From the NCBI GenBank assembly GCA_043813075.1, contig JBDRLL010000023.1, forward strand, positions 1-11,690: 11,690 nt of DNA, in the 5' to 3' direction. Numbering within the stretch: the stretch's first letter is position 1; every line of letters begins with the position of its first letter. Below are positions 2,175 through 11,690 of this stretch, in pieces. The notes below the pieces were generated by a model. It searched no databases, had not been told where the DNA came from, and saw only the letters and a program-made list of their open reading frames with translations. The stretch is from Candidatus Altiarchaeota archaeon (GTDB lineage: Archaea > Altiarchaeota > Altiarchaeia > IMC4 > SCGC-AAA252-I15). The translations under genes were made by a program, and so were the position numbers.

Positions 2175-2585
2175 ATGAAAGCGCAGATTACGGTAGACTT
2201 CATGATAGCGATAGGAGTGGCCTTGACGCTTTTCATACTGATCCTTCAAACAATAAACAGCCAGGACTCCCAGCGGCGGGATATCGTCCACCGGGTGGAG
2301 GCGAAGAATCTGGCTGAAGAACTGGCGTCTGCGATAAACTCGGTGTATCTTTCTGGGGAGGGTTCCAACAGGACAATTGTCCTCCCCCACACAATGCAGG
2401 GGGGTGTGGGCTATGAAGTAAGGGTCTACCCGAAGTCGGTGCTTGTGAGGTACGACGACAATGTGAGGATGCAGTCCACGGGAACGCTTACTGCAGACAT
2501 CGGGCCCGGCGAATATGTGCTGGTGGACCCTGGGAGGATTATGATATCGTATTCTGGAGGTGTATTGAAGGTTGAGAATGAATGA
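2175..2585 (+). CDS. Minor pilin-like protein with class III signal peptide
   Basis: MKA|QITVDFMIAIGVALTLFILILQ: basic residue, A at -1, Q at +1, acidic D at +5, then a hydrophobic helix. The AEELASAINSVYLSGEG...IVLP segment is typical of archaeal pilin-like proteins. Confidence 0.8.
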   Translation: MKAQITVDFMIAIGVALTLFILILQTINSQDSQRRDIVHRVEAKNLAEELASAINSVYLSGEGSNRTIVLPHTMQGGVGYEVRVYPKSVLVRYDDNVRMQSTGTLTADIGPGEYVLVDPGRIMISYSGGVLKVENE

Positions 2586-3099
2586 TAAAGGGCAGATGTC
2601 CACGATAGACTTGACTGTTGCCTTCGTGATAATGCTGTTCATAATATTCGCGTCCCTTGAGGTGTGGACTACTGGCGTGAGGAAGATGGACACTGTATAC
2701 AACAAGCGGGGCATAGACCGTAAGGTACTGGACGTCGCGGAGTCGCTGGTGGAGACTCCAGGCGTGCCTTCAGGATGGCATACCCTGGATGTCGTTGACT
2801 CCAGCACTGTGGGTTCGGTAGGGTTCGCTAGGAAGAGGAATGTCTTGGACGGTCCGAGGCTGGATAAGGCATCTTCCATGGACTATGGGGAGTTGAGGAG
2901 GATCATGGGCTTGAGCAAGGAGGAGATTCACGTGGTAGTCAGGAACCTGAGTGACCCGGGTAGACGAGTTGTCTACGAGTACGGTCAGGGTACGGACGGC
3001 ACGGCAGTCGTCGTTAACAGGTATGGCATGCTGGGGGGCGACATGGTCGAAGTGAGTGTGAGGCTATACTATCCGGAGGGGTCCCAGCTGTCGGTGTAG
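2578..3099 (+). CDS. Minor pilin-like protein with class III signal peptide
   Basis: ATG at 2578 overlaps the upstream gene end. MNDKG|QMSTIDLTVAFVIMLFIIF, followed by AESLVETPGVPSGW...VGFA and MDYGELRRIMGL motifs seen in archaeal minor pilins. Confidence 0.8.
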   Translation: MNDKGQMSTIDLTVAFVIMLFIIFASLEVWTTGVRKMDTVYNKRGIDRKVLDVAESLVETPGVPSGWHTLDVVDSSTVGSVGFARKRNVLDGPRLDKASSMDYGELRRIMGLSKEEIHVVVRNLSDPGRRVVYEYGQGTDGTAVVVNRYGMLGGDMVEVSVRLYYPEGSQLSV

Positions 3100-3109
3100 G
3101 TGGTATGAT

Positions 3110-3490
3110 ATGACGGGCATATTCACTCTGGACGCGGTGGTGGGACTGTCCATATCGATGATGGTGCTAAGCGCCAGCATACTGATGCTCTCAGAGCCTA
3201 AATCCAGCAACAGGGAGAACGTCTACCAGATTTCCACGGACGTGCTCACGATACTCGACGAGAACGGCGGGCTTCAACGTCTGGCAAACCATGATGGGAG
3301 CATGCTAGGTGAGATAAAATCCGCTTTGCCGCAGAAGTACTGCATTGAATTAAGAATCAGGGACACCAACGACAATATCGTATTCCAGGAGGATGAGGAC
3401 TGCATTGGAAGCGAGTACGTGATCTCAAGGAGGAATTTCATGATGGAGCGAGAGCCGTATACGGCTGAAATAAGGATGTGGTACAAGTGA
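3110..3490 (+). CDS. Minor pilin-like protein with short class III-like signal
   Basis: RBS-like AGGTGGT at 3098-3104. MTG|IFTLDAVVGLSISMMVLSASILML has a G|xFTLDA motif, followed by STDVLTILDENG and two Cys. Confidence 0.75.
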   Translation: MTGIFTLDAVVGLSISMMVLSASILMLSEPKSSNRENVYQISTDVLTILDENGGLQRLANHDGSMLGEIKSALPQKYCIELRIRDTNDNIVFQEDEDCIGSEYVISRRNFMMEREPYTAEIRMWYK

Positions 3491-4308
3491 GGGACAGGGG
3501 ACTTTTATTCTCGATAATGAGCTTGATGCTGGTGCTGAGCGTGTTCACGCTGGCAGCCTACTATTCCACCATACACGTGGGGGAGGAAATACAGTCCGAG
3601 AAGATGAACAACATATTCAGTGACGTGCAGACGGACATCGAGCAGGTCCTTGCCATGAACGCGGAGGTGGTTCATGATGGGGGGAGGACTATGGTGAGGA
3701 TGAATGATAGGATGCCGCTGGAGGATGGCGTAAGCACACTAAACGCCTATGAGGACCATCTTGAAGGCTACTATGCGGGGAAGATAAACTCTGACATAAG
3801 GTTCTTTAGGGGGAGCGAGCCGGAGATGAGCATAGAGCCCGTCGGGATGGTGTACGGGTACAACACATACAACAAGCAGGAGTTGAGGGTATACAATGAG
3901 ACAGGCGAGGCGAGGGTATACGCTTATGAACTCTACTTCAGGGTAGACGGCAACTTCGTGAACGCGCAGGATGAGACACTATCCGGAAGCAGGAGGGTGA
4001 AGATAAACGGGACATTCGCGAACACAGGGTATGAGGAGATGTTCACAGTCTCGCCCACAGAAAGCTCGACCGTAACCCTGAACTTCACGACAGGTAAGGT
4101 CAGGATACACTTGGGTAGAAACACCATAAAAGGCGTTGAGAGGGATAATTCAATTAGGATAACCATGCTTGGCGACATAGGCGGCGAAATAGGCGCGAAC
4201 ATCGTGTTCGATGACATGGCGGACGTCGGCGTCAAGACGAATATGAGCCTGGAGGTCAGCGGGCCAATAACCAGAAGGGACAATGTATGGCTCACCCCCC
4301 CTGTATGA
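3487..4308 (+). CDS. Larger minor pilin or adhesin-like protein with class III signal peptide
   Basis: GTG at 3487 overlaps the upstream stop (GTGA); alternative GTG at 3478. (M)RDRG|LLFSIMSLMLVLSVFTLAAYY, beta-rich C-terminal domain, four N-glycosylation sequons (NET, NGT, NFT, NMS). Confidence 0.75.
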   Translation: MRDRGLLFSIMSLMLVLSVFTLAAYYSTIHVGEEIQSEKMNNIFSDVQTDIEQVLAMNAEVVHDGGRTMVRMNDRMPLEDGVSTLNAYEDHLEGYYAGKINSDIRFFRGSEPEMSIEPVGMVYGYNTYNKQELRVYNETGEARVYAYELYFRVDGNFVNAQDETLSGSRRVKINGTFANTGYEEMFTVSPTESSTVTLNFTTGKVRIHLGRNTIKGVERDNSIRITMLGDIGGEIGANIVFDDMADVGVKTNMSLEVSGPITRRDNVWLTPPV

Positions 4309-4340
4309 GCAGGACATGTCAGGTAGGTGTTTTCGTACCG

Positions 4341-4347
4341 TATAAAA
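4341..4347 (+). promoter_or_regulatory. Putative archaeal TATA box for the parA-adaptor-ATPase-platform unit
   Basis: TATAAAA lies 28-34 nt upstream of the ATG at 4375, in the 66-nt intergenic gap. Confidence 0.55.
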
Positions 4348-4350
4348 GGA

Positions 4351-4369
4351 GTTATTAGTAAGTAATAAC
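4351..4369. promoter_or_regulatory. Inverted repeat GTTATTA-N5-TAATAAC, candidate operator
   Basis: Perfect 7-bp arms (4351-4357 and 4363-4369) between the TATA box and the start codon. Confidence 0.45.
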
Positions 4370-4374
4370 AGTCT

Positions 4375-5349
4375 ATGGAGTTGAATGGCCGCATAATCCT
4401 GAGGGAGCTGCCCGACAAGGGAGAGGTTAGGATAGACACATTAGCTGAAGTCCTCGGTTTTGATAGGAAGAGTGTGCTGGAATCCTGTATGGCCCTTAGC
4501 AAGGACGGGTATGTTGAGGTGAGGAAACCATTATTCAGGAAATACCGTATATCTCGGACAGAAAAGAGGATGGGACGGCCAGGTAAATGCAGGGTTATAA
4601 GCGTTTCAAACCATAAGGGCGGGGTCGGGAAGACCACTACCGCCATAAACGTCTCAGCATCGCTCGCAGAGCTTGGGAAGAAGGTCCTTTTGGTGGACTT
4701 GGACCCGCAGGCGAATGCGACGACAACAATTGGGAGGGGTAAGAACATCAGATACAACATATACGACGTCCTATCCCTGACTGTGCCCGCTGCGGAGGGT
4801 GTGGTGGAGACTGACTACGGCTTCAGCCTGCTGCCATCGGAAGTCGGACTAGTGGGGCTTGAAGTCGAGTTGAGCGGAATCAGGAACAGGGAGCATCGTC
4901 TTGATGACGTGATAACAGACCTCAGGAGCGCGTACGACTACATCATAATAGACTGCCCGCCGTCACTCAGCATACTCGCTGTGAACGCGCTCACAGCATC
5001 GGACTCTGTCTTGATACCAGTGCAGTCAGACCAGTACGCCATAGAAAGCATTAGCACCCTCACCAGGATAATAGAGCTTGTTAAAGACAGGCTCAACGAA
5101 TCCCTCGAGATAGAGGGCGCGCTGATAACAATGCACGAGCCGGAATCCGAGTTCTCAAGGAGGATAGCGGAAGAGGTGAGGAGGAGGATGAAGGAGACTG
5201 TCCTGGATGTGGTTATCGAGAGGGATCCTAAGGTGAGCGAGGCTGCTGGCAGCAACATGCCTTTAATCAAATACGACCAGGAATCAAAGGCTGCGAAAGC
5301 ATACATGGAATTGAGCAGGAAACTGATTTCAGATGAAAGAGAAGGATAA
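4375..5349 (+). CDS. parA: ParA/Soj-family ATPase with N-terminal winged-helix extension
   Basis: Deviant Walker A KGGVGKTT (from 4615), VLLVDLDPQANAT, Walker B YDYIIIDCPPSL and NALTASDSVLIPVQ give strong Soj similarity. The N-terminal ~62 aa (IILRELPDKGEVRIDTLAEVLGFDRKSVLESCMALSKDGYVEV) are wHTH-like. No C-terminal MinD amphipathic helix. Confidence 0.92.
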   Translation: MELNGRIILRELPDKGEVRIDTLAEVLGFDRKSVLESCMALSKDGYVEVRKPLFRKYRISRTEKRMGRPGKCRVISVSNHKGGVGKTTTAINVSASLAELGKKVLLVDLDPQANATTTIGRGKNIRYNIYDVLSLTVPAAEGVVETDYGFSLLPSEVGLVGLEVELSGIRNREHRLDDVITDLRSAYDYIIIDCPPSLSILAVNALTASDSVLIPVQSDQYAIESISTLTRIIELVKDRLNESLEIEGALITMHEPESEFSRRIAEEVRRRMKETVLDVVIERDPKVSEAAGSNMPLIKYDQESKAAKAYMELSRKLISDEREG

Positions 5350-5545
5350 CGAGTCTAGGGGGCTTGACTCCCTGATACCAAGGGAGAGCAAGGGCGAGAA
5401 GCTGGGTAGGGGCGAAATACAGAAGGTGCTTTCCATCCTGGACGAGCTGCTGGGCAGGCTTCCTGACGAAGAGGTTGAAGAATTCGCGAAGTCCAAGGAA
5501 TACGAGCTATACGTGAAGCTCCTTGAATCATATAACGTAAGGTAA
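5333..5545 (+). CDS. Small 70-aa helical protein with a ParB-like N-terminal RGLDSLI peptide; putative ParA partner or adaptor
   Basis: Overlaps parA by 17 nt and ends 1 nt before the ATPase start. Contains SRGLDSLIP and KLGRG, then amphipathic helices VLSILDELLGRLPDEEVEEFAKSKEYELYVKLL. Confidence 0.75.
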   Translation: MKEKDNESRGLDSLIPRESKGEKLGRGEIQKVLSILDELLGRLPDEEVEEFAKSKEYELYVKLLESYNVR

Positions 5546-5546
5546 A

Positions 5547-7913
5547 ATGGGCTTAAGGGAGAAGGCAGAGTTGATAAGAGAGCGAGGCGTTCTCACTGAA
5601 GCCCTTGGCAGACACGTAAGAGCATATGGCGCCGTCGTGGCGGTAAAAGCATCCAAAAAGCTGAAGGCCGGCCGGAGGGACTTCAAGAGGTCTTTGGAGA
5701 AGCTCGAGGGGGACGGTAGGATAAAGATAGTAAAAAGATTTCTTAGGCCTCCAGCAATCAAGGCGACTGACAAGCTGCTTCTGGAAATGCCTCCCGGCGT
5801 GGGTAAGAACAACCTGCTTGACTTGATGGAGTCTGAGGGGAGACTGACGACACGTGATGCTGCTGAAAGGCTGGGTTTAAGCTATGAGGTAGTTAGAGAG
5901 TGGGCTTCCATACTCCAGAGGGACAATCTGGTGGTGCTGGACAAGGGGGTGATAAAGGCTGTTATGCCCAGGATATTCAGGCATAGACTGGATGGAGAAC
6001 TCGCGGAGAGCAGTAGGGGCAGTAGGACGATATACACTCAGGTGGACTACCTGTATGACTCGCTGAAAAGGGCTGGTAGGATGAGTGTGCCTGACGCGGC
6101 ATTGCTTTGCGAGACGACGCCGGAAAGGATAGAGAAATGGGCTAAACACCTGGACGTGTTCACGATAGAATACCCGTCAAACTTAATGAAGGAGGCTCAA
6201 GTGAAGCTCTCAAAAAAGCAGGTGAATCAGGAGGGGGAGGAGGAACTTGAAGGCCAGGTTTTAGACAGCTACAAGCTGACTGCCGACAAGGTGGTTGCTG
6301 AAGTGAGGATAATATCGAGCAAGAAGAAGTCCAAGCCCATATACATGGTGAAGGTTCCGAAGATATGCGCTGCAACACATAGCATGATGGACTTCATGAG
6401 GGATATATTGAGCAGCAGGGTGAAGATAGAGGTGGGGGACATCTCAGACTCCAGGAAGATGATGGAACTCAAGGAGAAGTTCTTCGATGAAGCCAGGAGG
6501 ATACTGATGAGCGAACTGGATTTGGACACTGACGACGCTAACGTTCTCGCGGGGACCATGACGCACTACATGTACGGGCTGGGAGACATAGAGCTACTGA
6601 TGCACGACGACTGGCTTGAGGAGGTTTGCGTGAACACCAGCCACATACCATTGACCGCTTACCACAAGAGGTTCGGATGGGTTGAGACAAGCCTGACCAT
6701 AAAGGACGAGCGGAGCGTCTACAACTACGCAGCGCAGATCGGGAGGAAGGTGGAGAGGGACATAACGAACATGGAGCCCATAATGGACGCCCACCTGCTG
6801 TCAGGCGACAGGGTGAACGCAACACTATTCCCGATATCCAACTTCGGTAACACGATAACCATAAGGAAGTTCGCGAGGCAGCCGTGGACTATAGCCCACT
6901 TCGTGAGCCCTGAAACACAGTCGCTTTCATACGAGATGGCTGCATTCCTCTGGCTCGCCTTCCAGTACGAACTCAACGTGCTTGTGGGAGGGGGGACTGC
7001 ATCAGGGAAGACGAGCATGCTGAACTGCCTGTGCTCGCTGATACAGCCCACACACAGGGTCATAACCATAGAGGACACCAGGGAGCTGAACCTGCCAAAG
7101 TACTTGAAGTGGAACTGGGTTCCGCTGAACACGAGGGAAGCCAACCCTGAGGGTAAGGGTGAGGTGAGCATGCTAGACCTCATAGTCACATCCCTGCGTA
7201 TGAGGCCGGACAGGATAGTCTTGGGCGAGATAAGGCGCAGGCGGGAGGCTGAAGTCCTCTTTGAAGCCATGCACACCGGCCACTCGGTCTACGGCACCAT
7301 ACACGCGGACACCGTCCACAACCTGAAGAGGAGGCTTCTTGAGCCGCCCATAGAGCTGCCTGCCGCGGAAGTCGAGGCACTGCACCTGATGATAGTCGTC
7401 TACAGGGACCGTCGGAAGGGCAGTAGGAAGGTGTTTGAGATAGCGGAGATACGGCCTGGAACCGGGAGCAGCGAATTCGAACTCAATTACCTGTACAGGT
7501 ATGACACCAGGTCCGGGGAATTCCTCACCATGCACGATAGCGTCAGGATATTCGACGAGCTTAGCCTGCACACGGGGATGACGAGGCCTGACATAGAGAG
7601 GGACCTGGGCGAGAAGGAGGCTGTGCTCCAGTGGATGGTGAAGGAGAACAAGAAGAGCCTCGATGATGTCGGGGAGGTGATGGACCTTTACTACAAGGAC
7701 AAGGAAGGCCTCCTGAAGATGGTGAGGGACAGTGGGGTGGAAGTCCCTAAAGGGAAGGGGGGTGAGGGTGATGTTGGTGACGATGCTGCGGTGAAGAAAC
7801 AGGGTGGTGAGGAGAAGGCTGCGGTGAAAAAGGAGGGCGTTGATAGGAAGCGGCCGCCCAAGAAGGATGAATCCGACGACTTCAAGCCTCCTGACATGAG
7901 CCAGCTAGGATAG
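5547..7913 (+). CDS. Type IV pilus / type II-IV secretion ATPase (VirB11/TadA/CpaF/FlaI family) with N-terminal winged-helix repeats
   Basis: YGLGDIELLMHDDWLEEVCVN, ITIRKF, Walker A GGTASGKT (~6990-7013), Asp box TIEDTREL, Walker B RMRPDRIVLGEIR and His box MHTGH...TIHAD. Has a ~230-aa N-terminal extension and a charged, low-complexity C-terminal tail. Confidence 0.95.
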   Translation: MGLREKAELIRERGVLTEALGRHVRAYGAVVAVKASKKLKAGRRDFKRSLEKLEGDGRIKIVKRFLRPPAIKATDKLLLEMPPGVGKNNLLDLMESEGRLTTRDAAERLGLSYEVVREWASILQRDNLVVLDKGVIKAVMPRIFRHRLDGELAESSRGSRTIYTQVDYLYDSLKRAGRMSVPDAALLCETTPERIEKWAKHLDVFTIEYPSNLMKEAQVKLSKKQVNQEGEEELEGQVLDSYKLTADKVVAEVRIISSKKKSKPIYMVKVPKICAATHSMMDFMRDILSSRVKIEVGDISDSRKMMELKEKFFDEARRILMSELDLDTDDANVLAGTMTHYMYGLGDIELLMHDDWLEEVCVNTSHIPLTAYHKRFGWVETSLTIKDERSVYNYAAQIGRKVERDITNMEPIMDAHLLSGDRVNATLFPISNFGNTITIRKFARQPWTIAHFVSPETQSLSYEMAAFLWLAFQYELNVLVGGGTASGKTSMLNCLCSLIQPTHRVITIEDTRELNLPKYLKWNWVPLNTREANPEGKGEVSMLDLIVTSLRMRPDRIVLGEIRRRREAEVLFEAMHTGHSVYGTIHADTVHNLKRRLLEPPIELPAAEVEALHLMIVVYRDRRKGSRKVFEIAEIRPGTGSSEFELNYLYRYDTRSGEFLTMHDSVRIFDELSLHTGMTRPDIERDLGEKEAVLQWMVKENKKSLDDVGEVMDLYYKDKEGLLKMVRDSGVEVPKGKGGEGDVGDDAAVKKQGGEEKAAVKKEGVDRKRPPKKDESDDFKPPDMSQLG
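7776..7838 (+). repeat. Imperfect ~30-33 nt tandem duplication in the ATPase C-terminal tail (GDDAAVKKQG / GEEKAAVKKEG)
   Basis: The core GCTGCGGTGAA-R-AA occurs at 7785 and 7818, preceded by GGTGA at 7776 and 7806. Confidence 0.65.
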
Positions 7914-7918
7914 CTAAG

Positions 7919-8803
7919 ATGGAAGTACCGTTGATGATAATACCCCTTAAGATAGGGGTGAGGCTTGCAGGCAAAGAGAAGGCCATATGGAGCAGGGCCT
8001 TCAAATTCTACCCGAAACTCAAGCTGTATCTGATGGAAACGGACTTGGAGGTGGAGGCTGAGGAGTACATCGGCGCGTCATTCATATCAGCCCTAGCGAC
8101 AGGGCTTCTGTTCGCAAGCCTCGTATACCTGCTTCTGACTGTGCTTGGAGCGGAGCAGGATAAGGTCCTGTTCCTCACGGGGAGTGTGGGTCTGGTAATA
8201 TTCCTGCTCTTCCTCTTCGTCCTGATAACATACCCAAACATACTCGCAGGGAAGAAGGCCGAGCAGATAGAGAGAGACCTGGTGTTCGCGCTGAAAGACA
8301 TGCTACTGGAAGTCAGCTCAGGGGCCTCACCCTACGCCGCACTGACTGAAGTAGCGAACTCGGACTACGGGAGCATCTCCAGGGAGATAGGGAAGGTTGT
8401 GAACAAGGCTAATGTCGGCATTCCGGTCGAGGAGGCGCTGGAAGACCTGGCTGTTAGAACCAGGTCTGAGATGCTGAAGAACAGCATATGGCAGATAGTC
8501 AACGCCCTAAAGTCCGGGTCCAGCCTGGAGGGCATACTGCGGGAGCTGGTGAGAGACCTCACAGTAGAGCAGAAGATGAAGATAAGGAACTACGCGCAGG
8601 AACTAAACGTCATGGTGTTGATATACATGCTCTTCGCCGTGGTCATACCCACCATAGCGACCACCCTCATAATAGTCTTAGGGCCGTTCCTTGGGATAGA
8701 CATGGGCCCGAAGGTCTTCTACATAATCCTTCCCGTATGCTTTTTCATACAGATATCGCTCATGGAGTTCATAAAAAGCAGAAGGCCGGTGGTGTACGTG
8801 TGA
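7919..8803 (+). CDS. Type IV pilus membrane platform protein (TadB/TadC/FlaJ-like, T2SS-F domain)
   Basis: Two N-terminal TMs, then YP...KAEQIERDLVFALKDMLLEVSSGAS...YGSISREIGKVV...GIPVEEALEDLA...QIVNALKSGSSL, then C-terminal TMs. Lies directly after the ATPase. Confidence 0.92.
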   Translation: MEVPLMIIPLKIGVRLAGKEKAIWSRAFKFYPKLKLYLMETDLEVEAEEYIGASFISALATGLLFASLVYLLLTVLGAEQDKVLFLTGSVGLVIFLLFLFVLITYPNILAGKKAEQIERDLVFALKDMLLEVSSGASPYAALTEVANSDYGSISREIGKVVNKANVGIPVEEALEDLAVRTRSEMLKNSIWQIVNALKSGSSLEGILRELVRDLTVEQKMKIRNYAQELNVMVLIYMLFAVVIPTIATTLIIVLGPFLGIDMGPKVFYIILPVCFFIQISLMEFIKSRRPVVYV

Positions 8804-9768
8804 TGATTCGGAGATTCTACATACTATTGTCCAAAGTGTTCCCGAAGAAGACTGTGGAGGGCATGCAGGACATGATAAGGTGTGCTGGACTGGATGTCGA
8901 GGCGAGGGTGTGGCTCGGCAACTCACTGCTCATGGGGACGCTAGTGCTGGCTGCAACAGTGTACATAGGGAGATACGGGGACCAGATGATGTTCAACATA
9001 CTCGGAGTGTGCATGTTCATAGTGTATATGGTGGCGGCATACAACATACCATTCTTCATAGCCGAGAAGAGGGCTGAGGCTGTTGAGGAAGCGCTGCCGA
9101 GCGCGCTACAGCTGATGTCATCCAACGTGCGGGCTGGGATGACCCCATACCAGGCCATGAAGGTGTCTGCGAGAGACGAGTTCGGTGTTCTGAGCGAGGA
9201 ACTGGAGAAGGCGACCACAAAGGCTCTGGGAACTTACTCGTTCTCAGACGCCCTGATGGAGATAAAGGAGAACATCTCCCTACCGGTACTTGAACGCTCG
9301 ATAAAACTGTTCATCAGGAGCATAGAGTCGGGAGGGCACCTGGCAAAGATGCTGGAGGAGACTGCTAGGGACATGAATGAGAACATAATGCTCAGGAGAC
9401 AGCTCGTATCCAGCACAAAGACGTACACCATACTCATACTATTGACTATAATAGTGGGCATGCCGGTCCTGATGAACGTTTCCATACACTTCACGGAGAG
9501 GATGGAGCAGATGAAATCCAACTTTAACCCATCAAACCTAGATGAGGTAGGCCTCGGGGTTCTCATGTCGGAGGCGTTCAGCATAGACTTCCTCATGAAC
9601 ATCTCGACGGTTATCATAGTCTTCACGTCCATAATCGCGAGCCTGCTCATAGGAGTCATAATCAAGGGTGAGGAGAAATACGGGCTGAAATACGCTTTCT
9701 TTATAGTGCCCGCGACCCTGATGGTTTTTTACGGCATAAGGCAGATGGTGAAGCTGTTTTTCACATAG
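8803..9768 (+). CDS. Second type IV pilus membrane platform protein (TadC-like, T2SS-F domain), 321 aa
   Basis: ATG at 8803 overlaps the upstream stop (TGATG). Contains AEKRAEAVEEALPSALQLMSSNVRAGMTPYQAM...EFGVLSEEL...SIESGGHLAKML and several TMs. The ORF-track start at 8488 is spurious. Confidence 0.92.
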   Translation: MIRRFYILLSKVFPKKTVEGMQDMIRCAGLDVEARVWLGNSLLMGTLVLAATVYIGRYGDQMMFNILGVCMFIVYMVAAYNIPFFIAEKRAEAVEEALPSALQLMSSNVRAGMTPYQAMKVSARDEFGVLSEELEKATTKALGTYSFSDALMEIKENISLPVLERSIKLFIRSIESGGHLAKMLEETARDMNENIMLRRQLVSSTKTYTILILLTIIVGMPVLMNVSIHFTERMEQMKSNFNPSNLDEVGLGVLMSEAFSIDFLMNISTVIIVFTSIIASLLIGVIIKGEEKYGLKYAFFIVPATLMVFYGIRQMVKLFFT

Positions 9769-9812
9769 TTTATAAGGCGAAAAACAAATAATTTTCCAAA
9801 TCAAGGAGGTGA
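9769..9812 (+). promoter_or_regulatory. Putative internal promoter (TTTATAA, 9769-9775) and strong Shine-Dalgarno (AAGGAGGTGA, 9803-9812) for the first major pilin
   Basis: TATA-like element immediately after the tadC-like stop, an AT-rich spacer, and a full-length SD just upstream of ATG 9816. This is the strongest SD in the window. Confidence 0.65.
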
Positions 9813-9815
9813 AAA

Positions 9816-10271
9816 ATGAATAATAAGGGACAATTATCAACGGAGTACCTGGTCATATTGGCCGTCGTCGTGATAGTCGCGCTTATAGTTGTGACAGTGC
9901 TTGGCGGGTTCATAGACATAGGTACTGGTGCGGGAGCCCAGGCAGCAAAAGGATACTGGAGGTCGGCAGACATAGGGATACTGAACTGGAAGGTGTCCTC
10001 GACGGCAGGCGGATCTGAGTTCATGGTCAGGAACAACCTGGACTACAGGATAGAGATATCGGACGTCAGTGTGGACGGTGCGTCAGTGCACTCCACTGCG
10101 ACAGTGCTAACCGCAGGACAGAGCAAGAAGTTCACTCTGACAGGAACGCTGTGCAGTGCTGCTGGAGACCAGTACGCTATGCCGGTCAAGTTCACGTACA
10201 AGGACGTTGACAACGACATATCAGGACTGACGTTCACTGGTACGAAGAACATTGAAGGCAACTGCGAGTAG
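9816..10271 (+). CDS. Archaeal type IV pilin (class III signal peptide, DUF361/PF04021-type), probable major pilin
   Basis: MNNKG|QLSTEYLVILAVVVIVALIVVTVLGGF has the canonical KG|QxSxE motif with Glu at +5. Beta-rich head domain with two Cys; strong SD. Confidence 0.9.
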   Translation: MNNKGQLSTEYLVILAVVVIVALIVVTVLGGFIDIGTGAGAQAAKGYWRSADIGILNWKVSSTAGGSEFMVRNNLDYRIEISDVSVDGASVHSTATVLTAGQSKKFTLTGTLCSAAGDQYAMPVKFTYKDVDNDISGLTFTGTKNIEGNCE

Positions 10272-10284
10272 GATTATATCCTTA

Positions 10285-10333
10285 CGGCTCTGCGATTGCA
10301 GAGCCGGACTCATTTATTTCTAATCATTTTTTT
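10285..10333 (+). terminator. Stem-loop plus T-rich tract after pilin 1 (terminator or mRNA-stabilising hairpin)
   Basis: CGGCTCTGC-GATT-GCAGAGCCG is a perfect 9-bp stem (10285-10306), followed by ATTTATTTC and a T7 run (10327-10333). Confidence 0.65.
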
Positions 10334-10357
10334 AATCCAGGATAGTAATAATCATCC

Positions 10358-10819
10358 ATGAAGCATAGGGGACAGTTATCCACAGAATACCTGGTCATAC
10401 TGGCAGTCGTGGTCGTGATAGCGCTTATAGTCGTCACAGTGCTGGGCGGATTCATAGACATCGGCAGCGGCGCAGGCAGCAAGGCCTCGAAGGCATACTG
10501 GAGGGGGGCGGACATTGGGATACTTAACTGGAGGATGTCTTCGACAGGGGATTCAAGATTCACGCTAAGGAACAACATGGACTACTCTATAAAAATGGAT
10601 TCTATGACTGTGGAAGGCAACCAGGTTTCGGGGGCAGTAGACAAGATCATAGAGCCGGGCGCAACCATTAACGTTAACGGAGACATGACCGCATTATGCG
10701 TTAAGGCAGGGGATACATATTCTGTGGGGATTGTCTTCCAGTTTGACGACAAAGACCATAGCATAGATGATCTGACATTCAAGGGGCTTAAGAAACTTGA
10801 GGGAAGCTGCGAAGAATAG
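10358..10819 (+). CDS. Archaeal type IV pilin (class III signal peptide), paralogue of 9816-10271
   Basis: MKHRG|QLSTEYLVILAVVVVIALIVVTVLGGFIDIG. Shares YWRxADIGILNW, RNNxDY, LCxxAGDxY and LTFxGxKxxEGxCE with the upstream pilin. Confidence 0.9.
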   Translation: MKHRGQLSTEYLVILAVVVVIALIVVTVLGGFIDIGSGAGSKASKAYWRGADIGILNWRMSSTGDSRFTLRNNMDYSIKMDSMTVEGNQVSGAVDKIIEPGATINVNGDMTALCVKAGDTYSVGIVFQFDDKDHSIDDLTFKGLKKLEGSCEE

Positions 10820-11139: not shown

Positions 11140-11690
11140 ATGAATCATGGGATAACACTCCTGACGGCAACAATAATGATTATGGCAGCCATTATGGGAG
11201 TTGCCCAGAACTACGAGCACGTGCCGGTATGGACCGGCAACCTTGGAGGTAGGATAGGGTCGATAAAAAAACAGAATGACACTATCATAGTGGCGTCCGG
11301 CGACAGGATAGCCTGCTTGAACCAGAACGGAAGGCTCAAGTGGGAGCACGCTACGGGAAACATCGTGAACTCTATAATGTTCTACGGGGATAGGATAATC
11401 GCCTCGTCCACAGACCACACCACATACATGTTCTCGAGAGAAGGTAGATTATTATGGAAGGCGGAGACCCCGGGATACGTCGGATACGACAATGCCTTAG
11501 ACGCTAGGGACGGTAGGATACTCGCAGGTTCTGTCAACGGGAACGCCTACATGTACGATGACAGTGGAAACCTGCTTTGGGAATATTACGTCGGAGGATA
11601 TGTCATGGCGGTAAGGATACTGGAGGACAGCACGGTCGTTGTATCCGACAGGCAGGCACTCATACTTGACCTTGAGGGGGAGGTTAGGAC
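11140..11690 (+). CDS. Secreted PQQ-like/BamB-type beta-propeller repeat protein, 3'-truncated and absent from the ORF track
   Basis: Translated by hand: signal-like MNHGITLLTATIMIMAAIMGVA, then repeats of ~40 aa ending CLNQNGRLKWEH, MFSREGRLLWKA, MYDDSGNLLWEY and ILDLEGEVR. The frame is open to the window end. Confidence 0.85.
   Translation, partial: MNHGITLLTATIMIMAAIMGVAQNYEHVPVWTGNLGGRIGSIKKQNDTIIVASGDRIACLNQNGRLKWEHATGNIVNSIMFYGDRIIASSTDHTTYMFSREGRLLWKAETPGYVGYDNALDARDGRILAGSVNGNAYMYDDSGNLLWEYYVGGYVMAVRILEDSTVVVSDRQALILDLEGEVR

Follow-up and report, generated by a model that had tools for sequence, protein, structure and literature searches.

A 70-residue protein with a ParB-type N-terminal peptide is encoded between a Soj-type ParA and a pilus ATPase in an altiarchaeotal type IV pilus locus

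Results

A small gene separates parA from a pilus assembly ATPase gene

The stretch of DNA analyzed here (the window) is one entire contig of 11,690 nucleotides, JBDRLL010000023.1, from the 1.8 Mb, 89% complete genome of a Candidatus Altiarchaeota archaeon; the nearest named relatives of its proteins also belong to Candidatus Altiarchaeota. From 2175 to 10819 every gene lies on the forward strand, and the list of open reading frames (ORFs) together with Pfam and NCBIfam searches identifies this region as a type IV pilus locus. Within it, three genes on that strand follow one another closely: one for a 324-residue Soj-type ParA ATPase (4375–5349), a 70-residue ORF (5333–5545), and one for a 788-residue assembly ATPase of the type IV pilus/archaellum type (FlaI/PilB/TadA-type; 5547–7913). 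A preliminary description, made from the sequence alone, had singled out the ORF as bearing the ParA-activating motif of ParB without the rest of that protein. We find that the ORF product consists of two modules, a ParB-type ParA-binding peptide (RGLDSLIP, residues 9–16, 5357–5380) and a TP_0179 domain (PF27359; residues ~26–68, 5408–5536), and we propose, at a probability of roughly 0.6, that it is a partner or adaptor that couples the Soj-type ParA to one pilus machine.

The ORF runs from an ATG at 5333 to a TAA at 5543–5545, with RGLDSLIP placed as originally described. At its 5' side it shares 17 nt with the end of parA, stop codon included, and a single nucleotide separates its own end from the ATPase ATG at 5547; both junctions are compatible with co-translation of parA, the small gene and the ATPase gene. 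It is a real, conserved gene. Six other genomes of the family encode orthologues of 59–71 residues, flanked likewise by ParA and this ATPase; in one metagenome locus (L108) all three genes are adjacent, and in two others (L109 and L112) the small gene follows ParA and the contig then ends. Conservation of the protein at this position extends down to ~40% identity, and its placement directly after parA, to which the preliminary description had attached weight, holds well beyond the window. A scan of the genome contigs returned six loci, just one of which is of the short form. The protein has no match in Pfam or NCBIfam, even at E 10; our local Pfam copy has no PF27359 model, and the TP_0179 assignment is a precomputed label whose name comes from a protein atlas.

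The N-terminus carries a ParB-type peptide

Bacterial ParB uses its N-terminal peptide to contact the interface of the ParA dimer and, jointly with DNA, to stimulate hydrolysis of ATP. RGLDSLIP belongs to a motif, [RK]-G-[LIV]-x-A-[LF]-[ILF], that recurs at the N-terminus across the small-protein family. We assessed conservation and charge in an alignment of 13 sequences, comprising the small protein and its relatives. A Gly follows the basic position in 12 of the 13; the basic position itself is Arg or Lys in 10 and D, E and E in the remaining three; and the relaxed pattern [RK]G[LIV]x[AST][LF][ILF] is satisfied by 10. Conservation of RGL, proposed earlier as a check on the motif, was thus found in the main and broke down in the three relatives with an acidic residue. 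Among four forms that read G-x-G-[VL]-K-A-[LF], three retain a Lys two residues later. The motif is rare in the window's genome: within the first 30 residues, the relaxed pattern occurs in only 3 of 6888 mechanical ORFs of at least 60 residues, the target included. A second, partial copy suggested at KLGRG (residues 23–27, 5399–5413) did not withstand comparison: the closest orthologues have KLGRT, TLSKS and TLSKG at this segment, and the others have no counterpart. In the predicted structure, the first two 10-residue blocks have a predicted local distance difference test (pLDDT) score of 49 and 67 and contain a short helix at residues 11–14; the arm formed by residues 1–25 is probably disordered.

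To compare this peptide with those of genuine ParBs, we chose the latter by the similarity of their ParA neighbors, leaving the motif unused. A plasmid collection (which includes many chromosome pieces), searched with the window ParA core, yielded 1013 records at E <= 1e-30, identity reaching 46% at best. The gene after ParA was inspected in 11 of these records and is annotated as ParB in nine. Read by eye, six of the nine fit G[RK]G[LIV]x[AST][LF][ILFT] (LGKGINALF twice, LGKGIGALF, LGRGLDALI, LGRGLGALF and LGRGLSALIPE), two come close and one is without the motif. The remaining two genes encode hypothetical proteins of 93 and 102 residues with G-G-[FL]-[DN]-S-L-[IL], so small non-ParB partners with a ParB-like tag exist in bacteria too; on these two bacterial plasmids (L089 2249–2530 and L094 2294–2602) the segments read R-G-G-F-D-S-L-I and S-G-G-L-N-S-L-L. 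Further, three metagenomic proteins encoded after ParA (L113–L115) are full-length ParBs with ParB_N, HTH_ParB and ParB_C by Pfam, and they start with VLGKGLDALIP, a peptide shared by a 71-residue relative of the small protein (P0020). The metagenome scan is not independent evidence, because its search pattern was taken from the small proteins. Both sets of matches nonetheless agree with the original reading of the peptide as ParB's ParA-binding motif.

A profile built from the first 28 residues of the nine annotated bacterial ParBs was run against the N-termini of the 6888 ORFs. The target ranked first (8.7 bits, E 0.81), and relatives scored with the same profile and database size reached 1.8e-4, 2e-3, 0.026, 0.027, 0.036 and 0.05; five of 19 scored below 3 bits. 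By tblastn against the plasmids, the 27-residue N-terminus and a 24-residue stretch of P0019 found nothing at E <= 10, these queries being too short. Weak matches of residues 5–32 to frames of ~290 residues in class-level relatives were taken as chance; the unscanned translations of these frames show no sign of ParB.

These sequence forms can be set against published accounts of the peptide. The available part of PMC12462528 describes the ParB motif as aliphatic residues with one central positive residue, which is Lys in about half of chromosomal ParBs, and reports that R13K is mild in M. xanthus and that a 20-residue ParB peptide is enough when DNA is present. In the portion of PMC11229316 at hand, the H. 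pylori ParB N-terminal peptide ends in VLGRG with Leu7 and Arg9 conserved, and T. thermophilus Arg10 and B. subtilis Lys3/Lys7 are cited as counterparts. Given this description, the Lys forms among the relatives are normal; the Asp and Glu forms are exceptions.

The body of ParB is missing

The 70-residue protein has the N-terminal ParA-binding motif of ParB/Spo0J and is encoded directly after a Soj-type parA. By Pfam it has no ParB_N (the Srx-like CTPase domain with GxxRxxA), no HTH_ParB and no ParB_C, domains that the same library detects in the true ParBs L113–L115. Because three of the four defining features are absent, the small protein, only 70 residues long, is not a ParB; that the rest of ParB is missing had already been stated in the preliminary description. 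Nor did a ParB_N search find a match in the window's genome (89% complete) or in the other six system-bearing genomes, although the same search gave matches in 12 of 61 genomes of the phylum. The sole strong ParB_N match within the family, a 310-residue ORF in genome G005, was set aside: it has no N-terminal motif and no neighboring ParA. By appearance its own neighbors, which were not scanned, are phage-like.

The C-terminus is a TP_0179 domain

The PF27359 label is present on the window protein and on 51 of 55 relatives of near length. The domain is modeled as a three-helix bundle (residues 26–41, 45–52 and 55–66) with a pLDDT of 85–94. An exhaustive search returned 258 cluster representatives at E <= 1e-3, aligned through residues ~26–69 of the window protein. 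These proteins, of 41–1354 residues, match mostly by their own C-termini and often in tandem pairs, with membrane segments, coiled coils and zinc ribbons among their N-terminal parts. The domain thus lies mostly at the C-termini of many archaeal and spirochaete proteins, which bears out an impression, unverified when it was recorded, that the C-terminal part resembled the tails of uncharacterized archaeal proteins. The acidity ascribed to that part is not a family trait, its net charge ranging from -7 to +4 among the 13 relatives. Structure and profile comparisons added no further relative: no Foldseek match to the small-protein model came within E <= 1e-3; VIA-align reached a Z of 3.8 at most, a value in the noise range of helical bundles; and a profile from the family alignment gave only chance-level matches to Protein Data Bank (PDB) sequences, none of them a ParB.

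The peptide is confined to short members of this family. Of 152 stored TP_0179-family proteins, 10 have the motif, and these are 59–107 residues long; it is found in none of the 108 members that exceed 120 residues. A regular expression finds it in 14 of the 55 near-length relatives, always within 41 residues of the N-terminus; two further variants, R-G-L-D-E-L-I-P and K-G-L-R-P-L-V, were seen by eye. At four Thermoplasmata loci (L033–L036), proteins of 407–455 residues combine a double zinc ribbon with a C-terminal TP_0179 domain and are encoded directly before very large proteins, three of ~1300 residues and one (L035) cut by the contig end. One of these neighbors has DUF835, the others have matches of coiled-coil type, and no pilus genes are present.

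The upstream ATPase is a Soj-type ParA with a winged helix

The protein encoded at 4375–5349 is a Soj-type ParA with an extra winged-helix domain. Its P-loop core (residues ~72–320) matches Pfam AAA_31 at 2.4e-59, the sole AAA_31 match in the genome at E <= 1e-5, and the deviant Walker A motif KGGVGKT is invariant in eight to nine orthologues. The best solved relatives are 8ray (7e-62; 45% identity, root-mean-square deviation [rmsd] 1.5), T. thermophilus Soj and H. pylori Soj; across these three, sequence matches range from 7e-62 to 1e-43 and fold rmsd from 1.2 to 1.7, whereas archaeal MinD is a far weaker match (~1e-22). Identity of the core to bacterial chromosomal Soj is 40–46%. In the model (pLDDT 88), helices 3–11, 20–27 and 31–43 and strands 47–50 and 58–61 form an N-terminal winged helix (residues ~1–66). 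Deep branches of a 24-row ParA tree were unresolved, and we therefore make no statement on origin.

A TATA-box-like TATAAAA (4341–4347, forward strand), read directly from the sequence 27 nt 5' of the parA ATG, is a possible archaeal promoter for an operon of parA, the small gene and the ATPase gene. A sigma-70 and terminator scan of the window was uninformative, the host being archaeal.

The downstream ATPase and the remainder of the locus

The protein encoded at 5547–7913 matches Pfam T2SSE at 8e-30 over residues 427–598 and the NCBIfam FlaI motor model at 6e-73, below the cut-off of that model. It has an N-terminal extension of ~270 residues with a weak HTH_28 match. Genomes of the family have one to seven pilus ATPase matches, and the window's genome has four. 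The three further paralogues (contigs C1, C35 and C6 of G000) are 29–44% identical and are without the first 200–250 residues. None of them is accompanied by a ParA/small-protein pair, C23 being the only contig of this genome on which the two genes have a match.

All seven long pilus ATPases start with a conserved basic M-G-L-[RKL]-x-K (window 5547–5590; L002–L006, L010, L078 and L079), and in a sister family, f5, a separate 325-residue protein encoded before an ATPase begins with M-G-L-L-D-K. Starts of this type may represent another short N-terminal tag at this locus. The ATPase extension (5547–6356) aligned weakly with this separate f5 gene (L076 5864–6838), which stands ahead of a shorter ATPase, in a single pairwise BLASTP comparison (E 0.002) along a winged-helix-like stretch; tblastn gave no match at 1e-4. 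The likeness is no more than suggestive of homology, by way of a fusion or a split.

Downstream on the same strand lie genes for two TadC/FlaJ-type platform proteins, at 7919–8803 (T2SSF 8.5e-17) and 8806–9768 (T2SSF 1.6e-19; its start codon is uncertain, a longer mechanical ORF beginning at 8488), and for two archaeal type IV pilins with class III signal peptides, at 9816–10271 (Class_IIIsignal 2.4e-5) and 10358–10819 (2.8e-4, just under the curated cut-off). Upstream of parA, at 2175–4308, four successive genes encode proteins of 136, 175, 126 and 276 residues, each with a hydrophobic segment after a short polar N-terminus and no Pfam match; they resemble minor pilins or proteins associated with the pilus of this locus. 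The flanks of the window code for a protein that has a weak ThuA-like match and a linker rich in Thr and Ser (2–856), a Cys-rich protein of 231 residues with no match (863–1558), and, truncated by the contig end, a protein with PQQ/beta-propeller repeats (11140–11688). An Rfam scan of the window gave no match.

The peptide accompanies ParA and TP_0179 accompanies the pilus ATPase

Across 21 genomes of the family, the small protein, the winged-helix ParA and the orthologous long ATPase (52–67% identity, E <= 1e-228) are present in the same seven, which span five genera, and none of the three is present in the other 14.

The sister family f5 has the two modules apart. There, all three Soj-like ParAs (E ~1e-58) are followed by a coiled-coil protein with a ParB-type peptide in its first 15 residues (K-D-L-E-A-L-I-P, K-G-L-E-T-L-I-P and M-G-L-D-I-L-I-P). 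The protein has 770 and 820 residues in two of the loci, and a contig end truncates the third copy; TP_0179 is missing from all of them (L074 3499–6815, L075 983–4152 and L080 1–1507). No pilus genes lie near the pair in the two loci with enough flank. With the coiled-coil protein the phylum has another kind of ParA partner, one that recalls scaffold partners such as PomX. In L074 and L075 the gene upstream encodes a protein of more than 1000 residues, the L074 copy of which has a P-loop.

By contrast, in 12 of the 13 f5 genomes with TP_0179 the domain occurs on a tandem-TP_0179 protein, followed by a protein of 325–352 residues and then by a T2SSE ATPase, with T2SSF genes next where the contig allows. 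None of these 12 TP_0179 proteins has an adjacent ParA, and the motif is found at none of their N-termini, two of which may be cut by contig ends. Likewise, on a Thermoplasmatales contig a TP_0179 gene immediately precedes a T2SSE gene and two T2SSF genes. The peptide, then, tracks ParA and TP_0179 tracks the pilus ATPase, which is the main argument for an adaptor. The preliminary description had offered a minimal activator or a cargo adaptor; because TP_0179 tracks the pilus ATPase on its own, we prefer the cargo adaptor.

Discussion

A protein that joins a ParB peptide to a helical domain, and whose gene is placed between those of a ParA-type ATPase and a pilus motor, probably links both. 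We envisage that ParA dimerizes with ATP and probably binds DNA, as Soj does, perhaps via its winged helix. The flexible N-terminal arm of the small protein would dock at the ParA dimer and stimulate hydrolysis, while the TP_0179 bundle, standing in for the DNA-binding body of ParB, would hold a pilus component, most likely the downstream ATPase and probably its unique N-terminal extension. The ATP-bound ParA dimer could thereby place, space, count or gate this one pilus machine of the four encoded, with an outcome resembling that of TadZ/CpaE for Tad pili or MinD4 for archaella. The parts of this proposal differ in strength. It is likely that the peptide binds ParA and stimulates its ATPase activity; that TP_0179 binds the pilus ATPase, to which its genomic association points, we would put at even odds. 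Both the positioning role and the target of the ParA winged helix are things that we infer.

Several observations weigh against an adaptor acting through a ParB peptide. The acidic residues at the basic position in three of 13 relatives weaken the case. The arms of these 13 proteins are not net positive, their charge ranging from -4 to +3; the window protein lacks the L-G that most ParBs have before the basic residue; and its own score in the ParB profile is weak despite its first rank. According to the available part of PMC12462528, two juxtaposed peptides work far better than one and are needed for full activation, for which the small protein might have to dimerize or be multivalent. On the pilus side, TP_0179 is promiscuous, occurring in Thermoplasmata zinc-ribbon fusions without pilus genes and in spirochaetes, so any affinity for pilus ATPases may not be specific. 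In one further genome (G015) neither ParA nor the small protein was detected, and an ATPase paralogue is present; it is 43% identical, aligns from residue 87 onward and lies 395 nt from the end of its contig. Finally, the winged-helix ParAs are not resolved as one clade in the ParA tree.

The main rival to the adaptor reading is autoregulation. In type Ia plasmid systems such as P1 and F, the N-terminal helix-turn-helix (HTH) of ParA binds the par operator and ParB is a co-repressor; the winged-helix ParA of the window might likewise act chiefly by binding DNA, so as to repress or activate the pilus operon, with the small protein as its co-regulator and no positioning involved. An extra N-terminal winged helix on a ParA that heads an operon behind a TATA-like box is what such a role would call for, and the restriction of the system to one of four pilus ATPase loci is as expected of a locus-specific regulator. 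The core of this ParA is nevertheless that of a full Soj-type ATPase with all nucleotide motifs invariant; operator repeats, for which no search was made, did not come to light; and a pure co-repressor leaves unexplained the link between TP_0179 and pilus ATPases where no ParA is present. We regard autoregulation as an unlikely reading, and one that may coexist with a positioning role.

We think it less probable still that the pair is a minimal DNA segregation device, in which the small protein would be a non-canonical centromere binder (like ParG, omega or SegB) acting through TP_0179, and the pilus operon incidental or part of a mobile element. Such a device would account for the finding of only one Soj-type ParA and no ParB in the genome, and the proteins of 93 and 102 residues with a similar peptide after ParA on two bacterial plasmids are a precedent for small non-ParB partners. 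The conservation of the ParA–small protein–pilus ATPase trio across five genera speaks against it, however, and the absence of the system from 14 of 21 family genomes would be surprising if it served to segregate chromosomes. The signature of TP_0179 is hydrophobic and acidic, it gave no HTH or ribbon-helix-helix match, and the domain occurs both in tandem and at the ends of membrane, coiled-coil and zinc-ribbon proteins. Its nature and the patchy distribution of the system make a role in segregation unlikely.

The likeness of the peptide to ParB might instead be convergent, or serve another partner, and the small protein might be merely a pilus-ATPase accessory acting via TP_0179. A ParB-profile score that is not significant alone and the three relatives without a basic residue are in keeping with this; further, the ATPase and its f5 neighbor also start with a basic M-G-L-[RKL]-x-K, so short tags may be common at the locus. 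Yet the motif occurs only where a Soj-type ParA lies upstream (10 of 10 loci with a readable upstream gene), recurs on an unrelated coiled-coil body after ParA in three f5 genomes, and is missing from 12 of 12 f5 TP_0179 proteins without a ParA neighbor; convergence is accordingly as improbable, in our judgment, as segregation. That the ORF is spurious, a chance product of the parA–ATPase junction, might have been argued from its shortness and its lack of a match in the local Pfam and NCBIfam libraries, and is refuted by its conservation at the same position to ~40% identity, a family of 258 representatives and a confident domain model.

The adaptor reading extends, at somewhat less than even odds, to a broader possibility. 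Altiarchaeota may have taken over a bacterial Soj-type ParA, kept only the 10-residue tag of ParB and grafted it onto different bodies, giving rise to at least two archaeal ParA-driven systems for positioning protein cargos: one in which a TP_0179 bundle docks a specific type IV pilus motor, and one built on a coiled-coil scaffold of 770–820 residues. If this is true, TP_0179 would serve archaeal pilus ATPases generally as a docking module, and the locus would be a naturally occurring, minimal version of the "ATPase plus luggage tag" positioning devices that synthetic biologists seek to build. Positioning of cargos by ParA/MinD proteins is known from many bacterial cases and little known for archaea, and we know of no Soj-type ParA that has been tied to an archaeal pilus.

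The locus offers a very small, testable system of one ATPase, one 70-residue adaptor and one candidate cargo, in which the ParB peptide appears as a module that can move between protein bodies. Since only a single pilus ATPase locus of the four is marked in this way, the system might account for the placement or switching of one pilus among several. It also gives a first functional lead for TP_0179 (PF27359), which in this phylum is repeatedly linked to type IV pilus ATPases. Our literature search, which did not extend to subscription journals or to supplements such as the arCOG tables of PMC4858521, found no paper on this arrangement or on the TP_0179 domain.

Compared with the TP_0179 family at large, which has no known function and of which the C-terminal 45 residues of the window protein are a member, the ParB-type peptide is the distinguishing feature; it is carried only by a small subset of 59–112 residues, the named examples of which are all from Altiarchaeota. 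Compared with bacterial ParABS, the window protein shares a peptide with a central Arg or Lys between aliphatic residues, at the very N-terminal end of a disordered arm, and a gene directly after a Soj-type ParA. Unlike ParB, it is without the ParB_N/CTPase, HTH and dimerization domains, so no parS binding, clamp or spreading is expected; and the host here is archaeal, the operon that of a pilus, and the ParA equipped with an extra winged helix.

TadZ and CpaE have a receiver-like N-terminal domain and an atypical MinD-like core. The window ParA does not belong with them: its N-terminus is a winged helix, and its score against TIGR03815 ("CpaE_hom_Actino") is 32 bits against a cut-off of 154. 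What it shares with them, and with FleN/MinD, is the presence of a ParA/MinD-family ATPase inside a type IV pilus locus. TadZ/CpaE is thought to place or regulate Tad pili, as described in the available part of PMC11407121, and a FleN/MinD ATPase (arCOG00589) was noted in archaeal type IV pilus loci by Makarova et al. in that of PMC4858521; for neither is a partner with a ParB peptide mentioned in these parts of the two papers. The window ATPase differs from both in being Soj-type, in having a winged helix rather than a receiver-like domain, and in having a ParB-peptide partner.

SegB is a site-specific DNA-binding protein that acts in chromosome segregation. With SegA it forms, in Sulfolobus, an archaeal pair of a ParA-like ATPase and a small partner encoded downstream (PMC12858884, in the part available), an arrangement that the window recalls. 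SegA, however, is a far weaker structural match to the window ParA than Soj is (7dut, rank 36), and SegA/SegB has no pilus context.

In the available parts of PMC10241942 and PMC11407121, partners of ParA/MinD ATPases are described as contacting the ATPase through a short N-terminal peptide while the remainder binds the cargo, the peptide serving as a "luggage tag." The window protein has both a flexible N-terminal peptide and a gene adjoining that of its cognate ATPase, and the plan that we propose for it, a peptide plus a cargo-binding body, is that of PomX, McdB, ParG and MinE (PomX and McdB being compared by abstract). The peptides of those proteins are system-specific, whereas the window protein has the ParB consensus itself and a body that is merely a 45-residue TP_0179 domain, and none of those systems is archaeal or pilus-linked. 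The arrangement is a variant on the known ParA/MinD partner systems, a Soj-type ATPase with a ParB-tag partner in a pilus operon.

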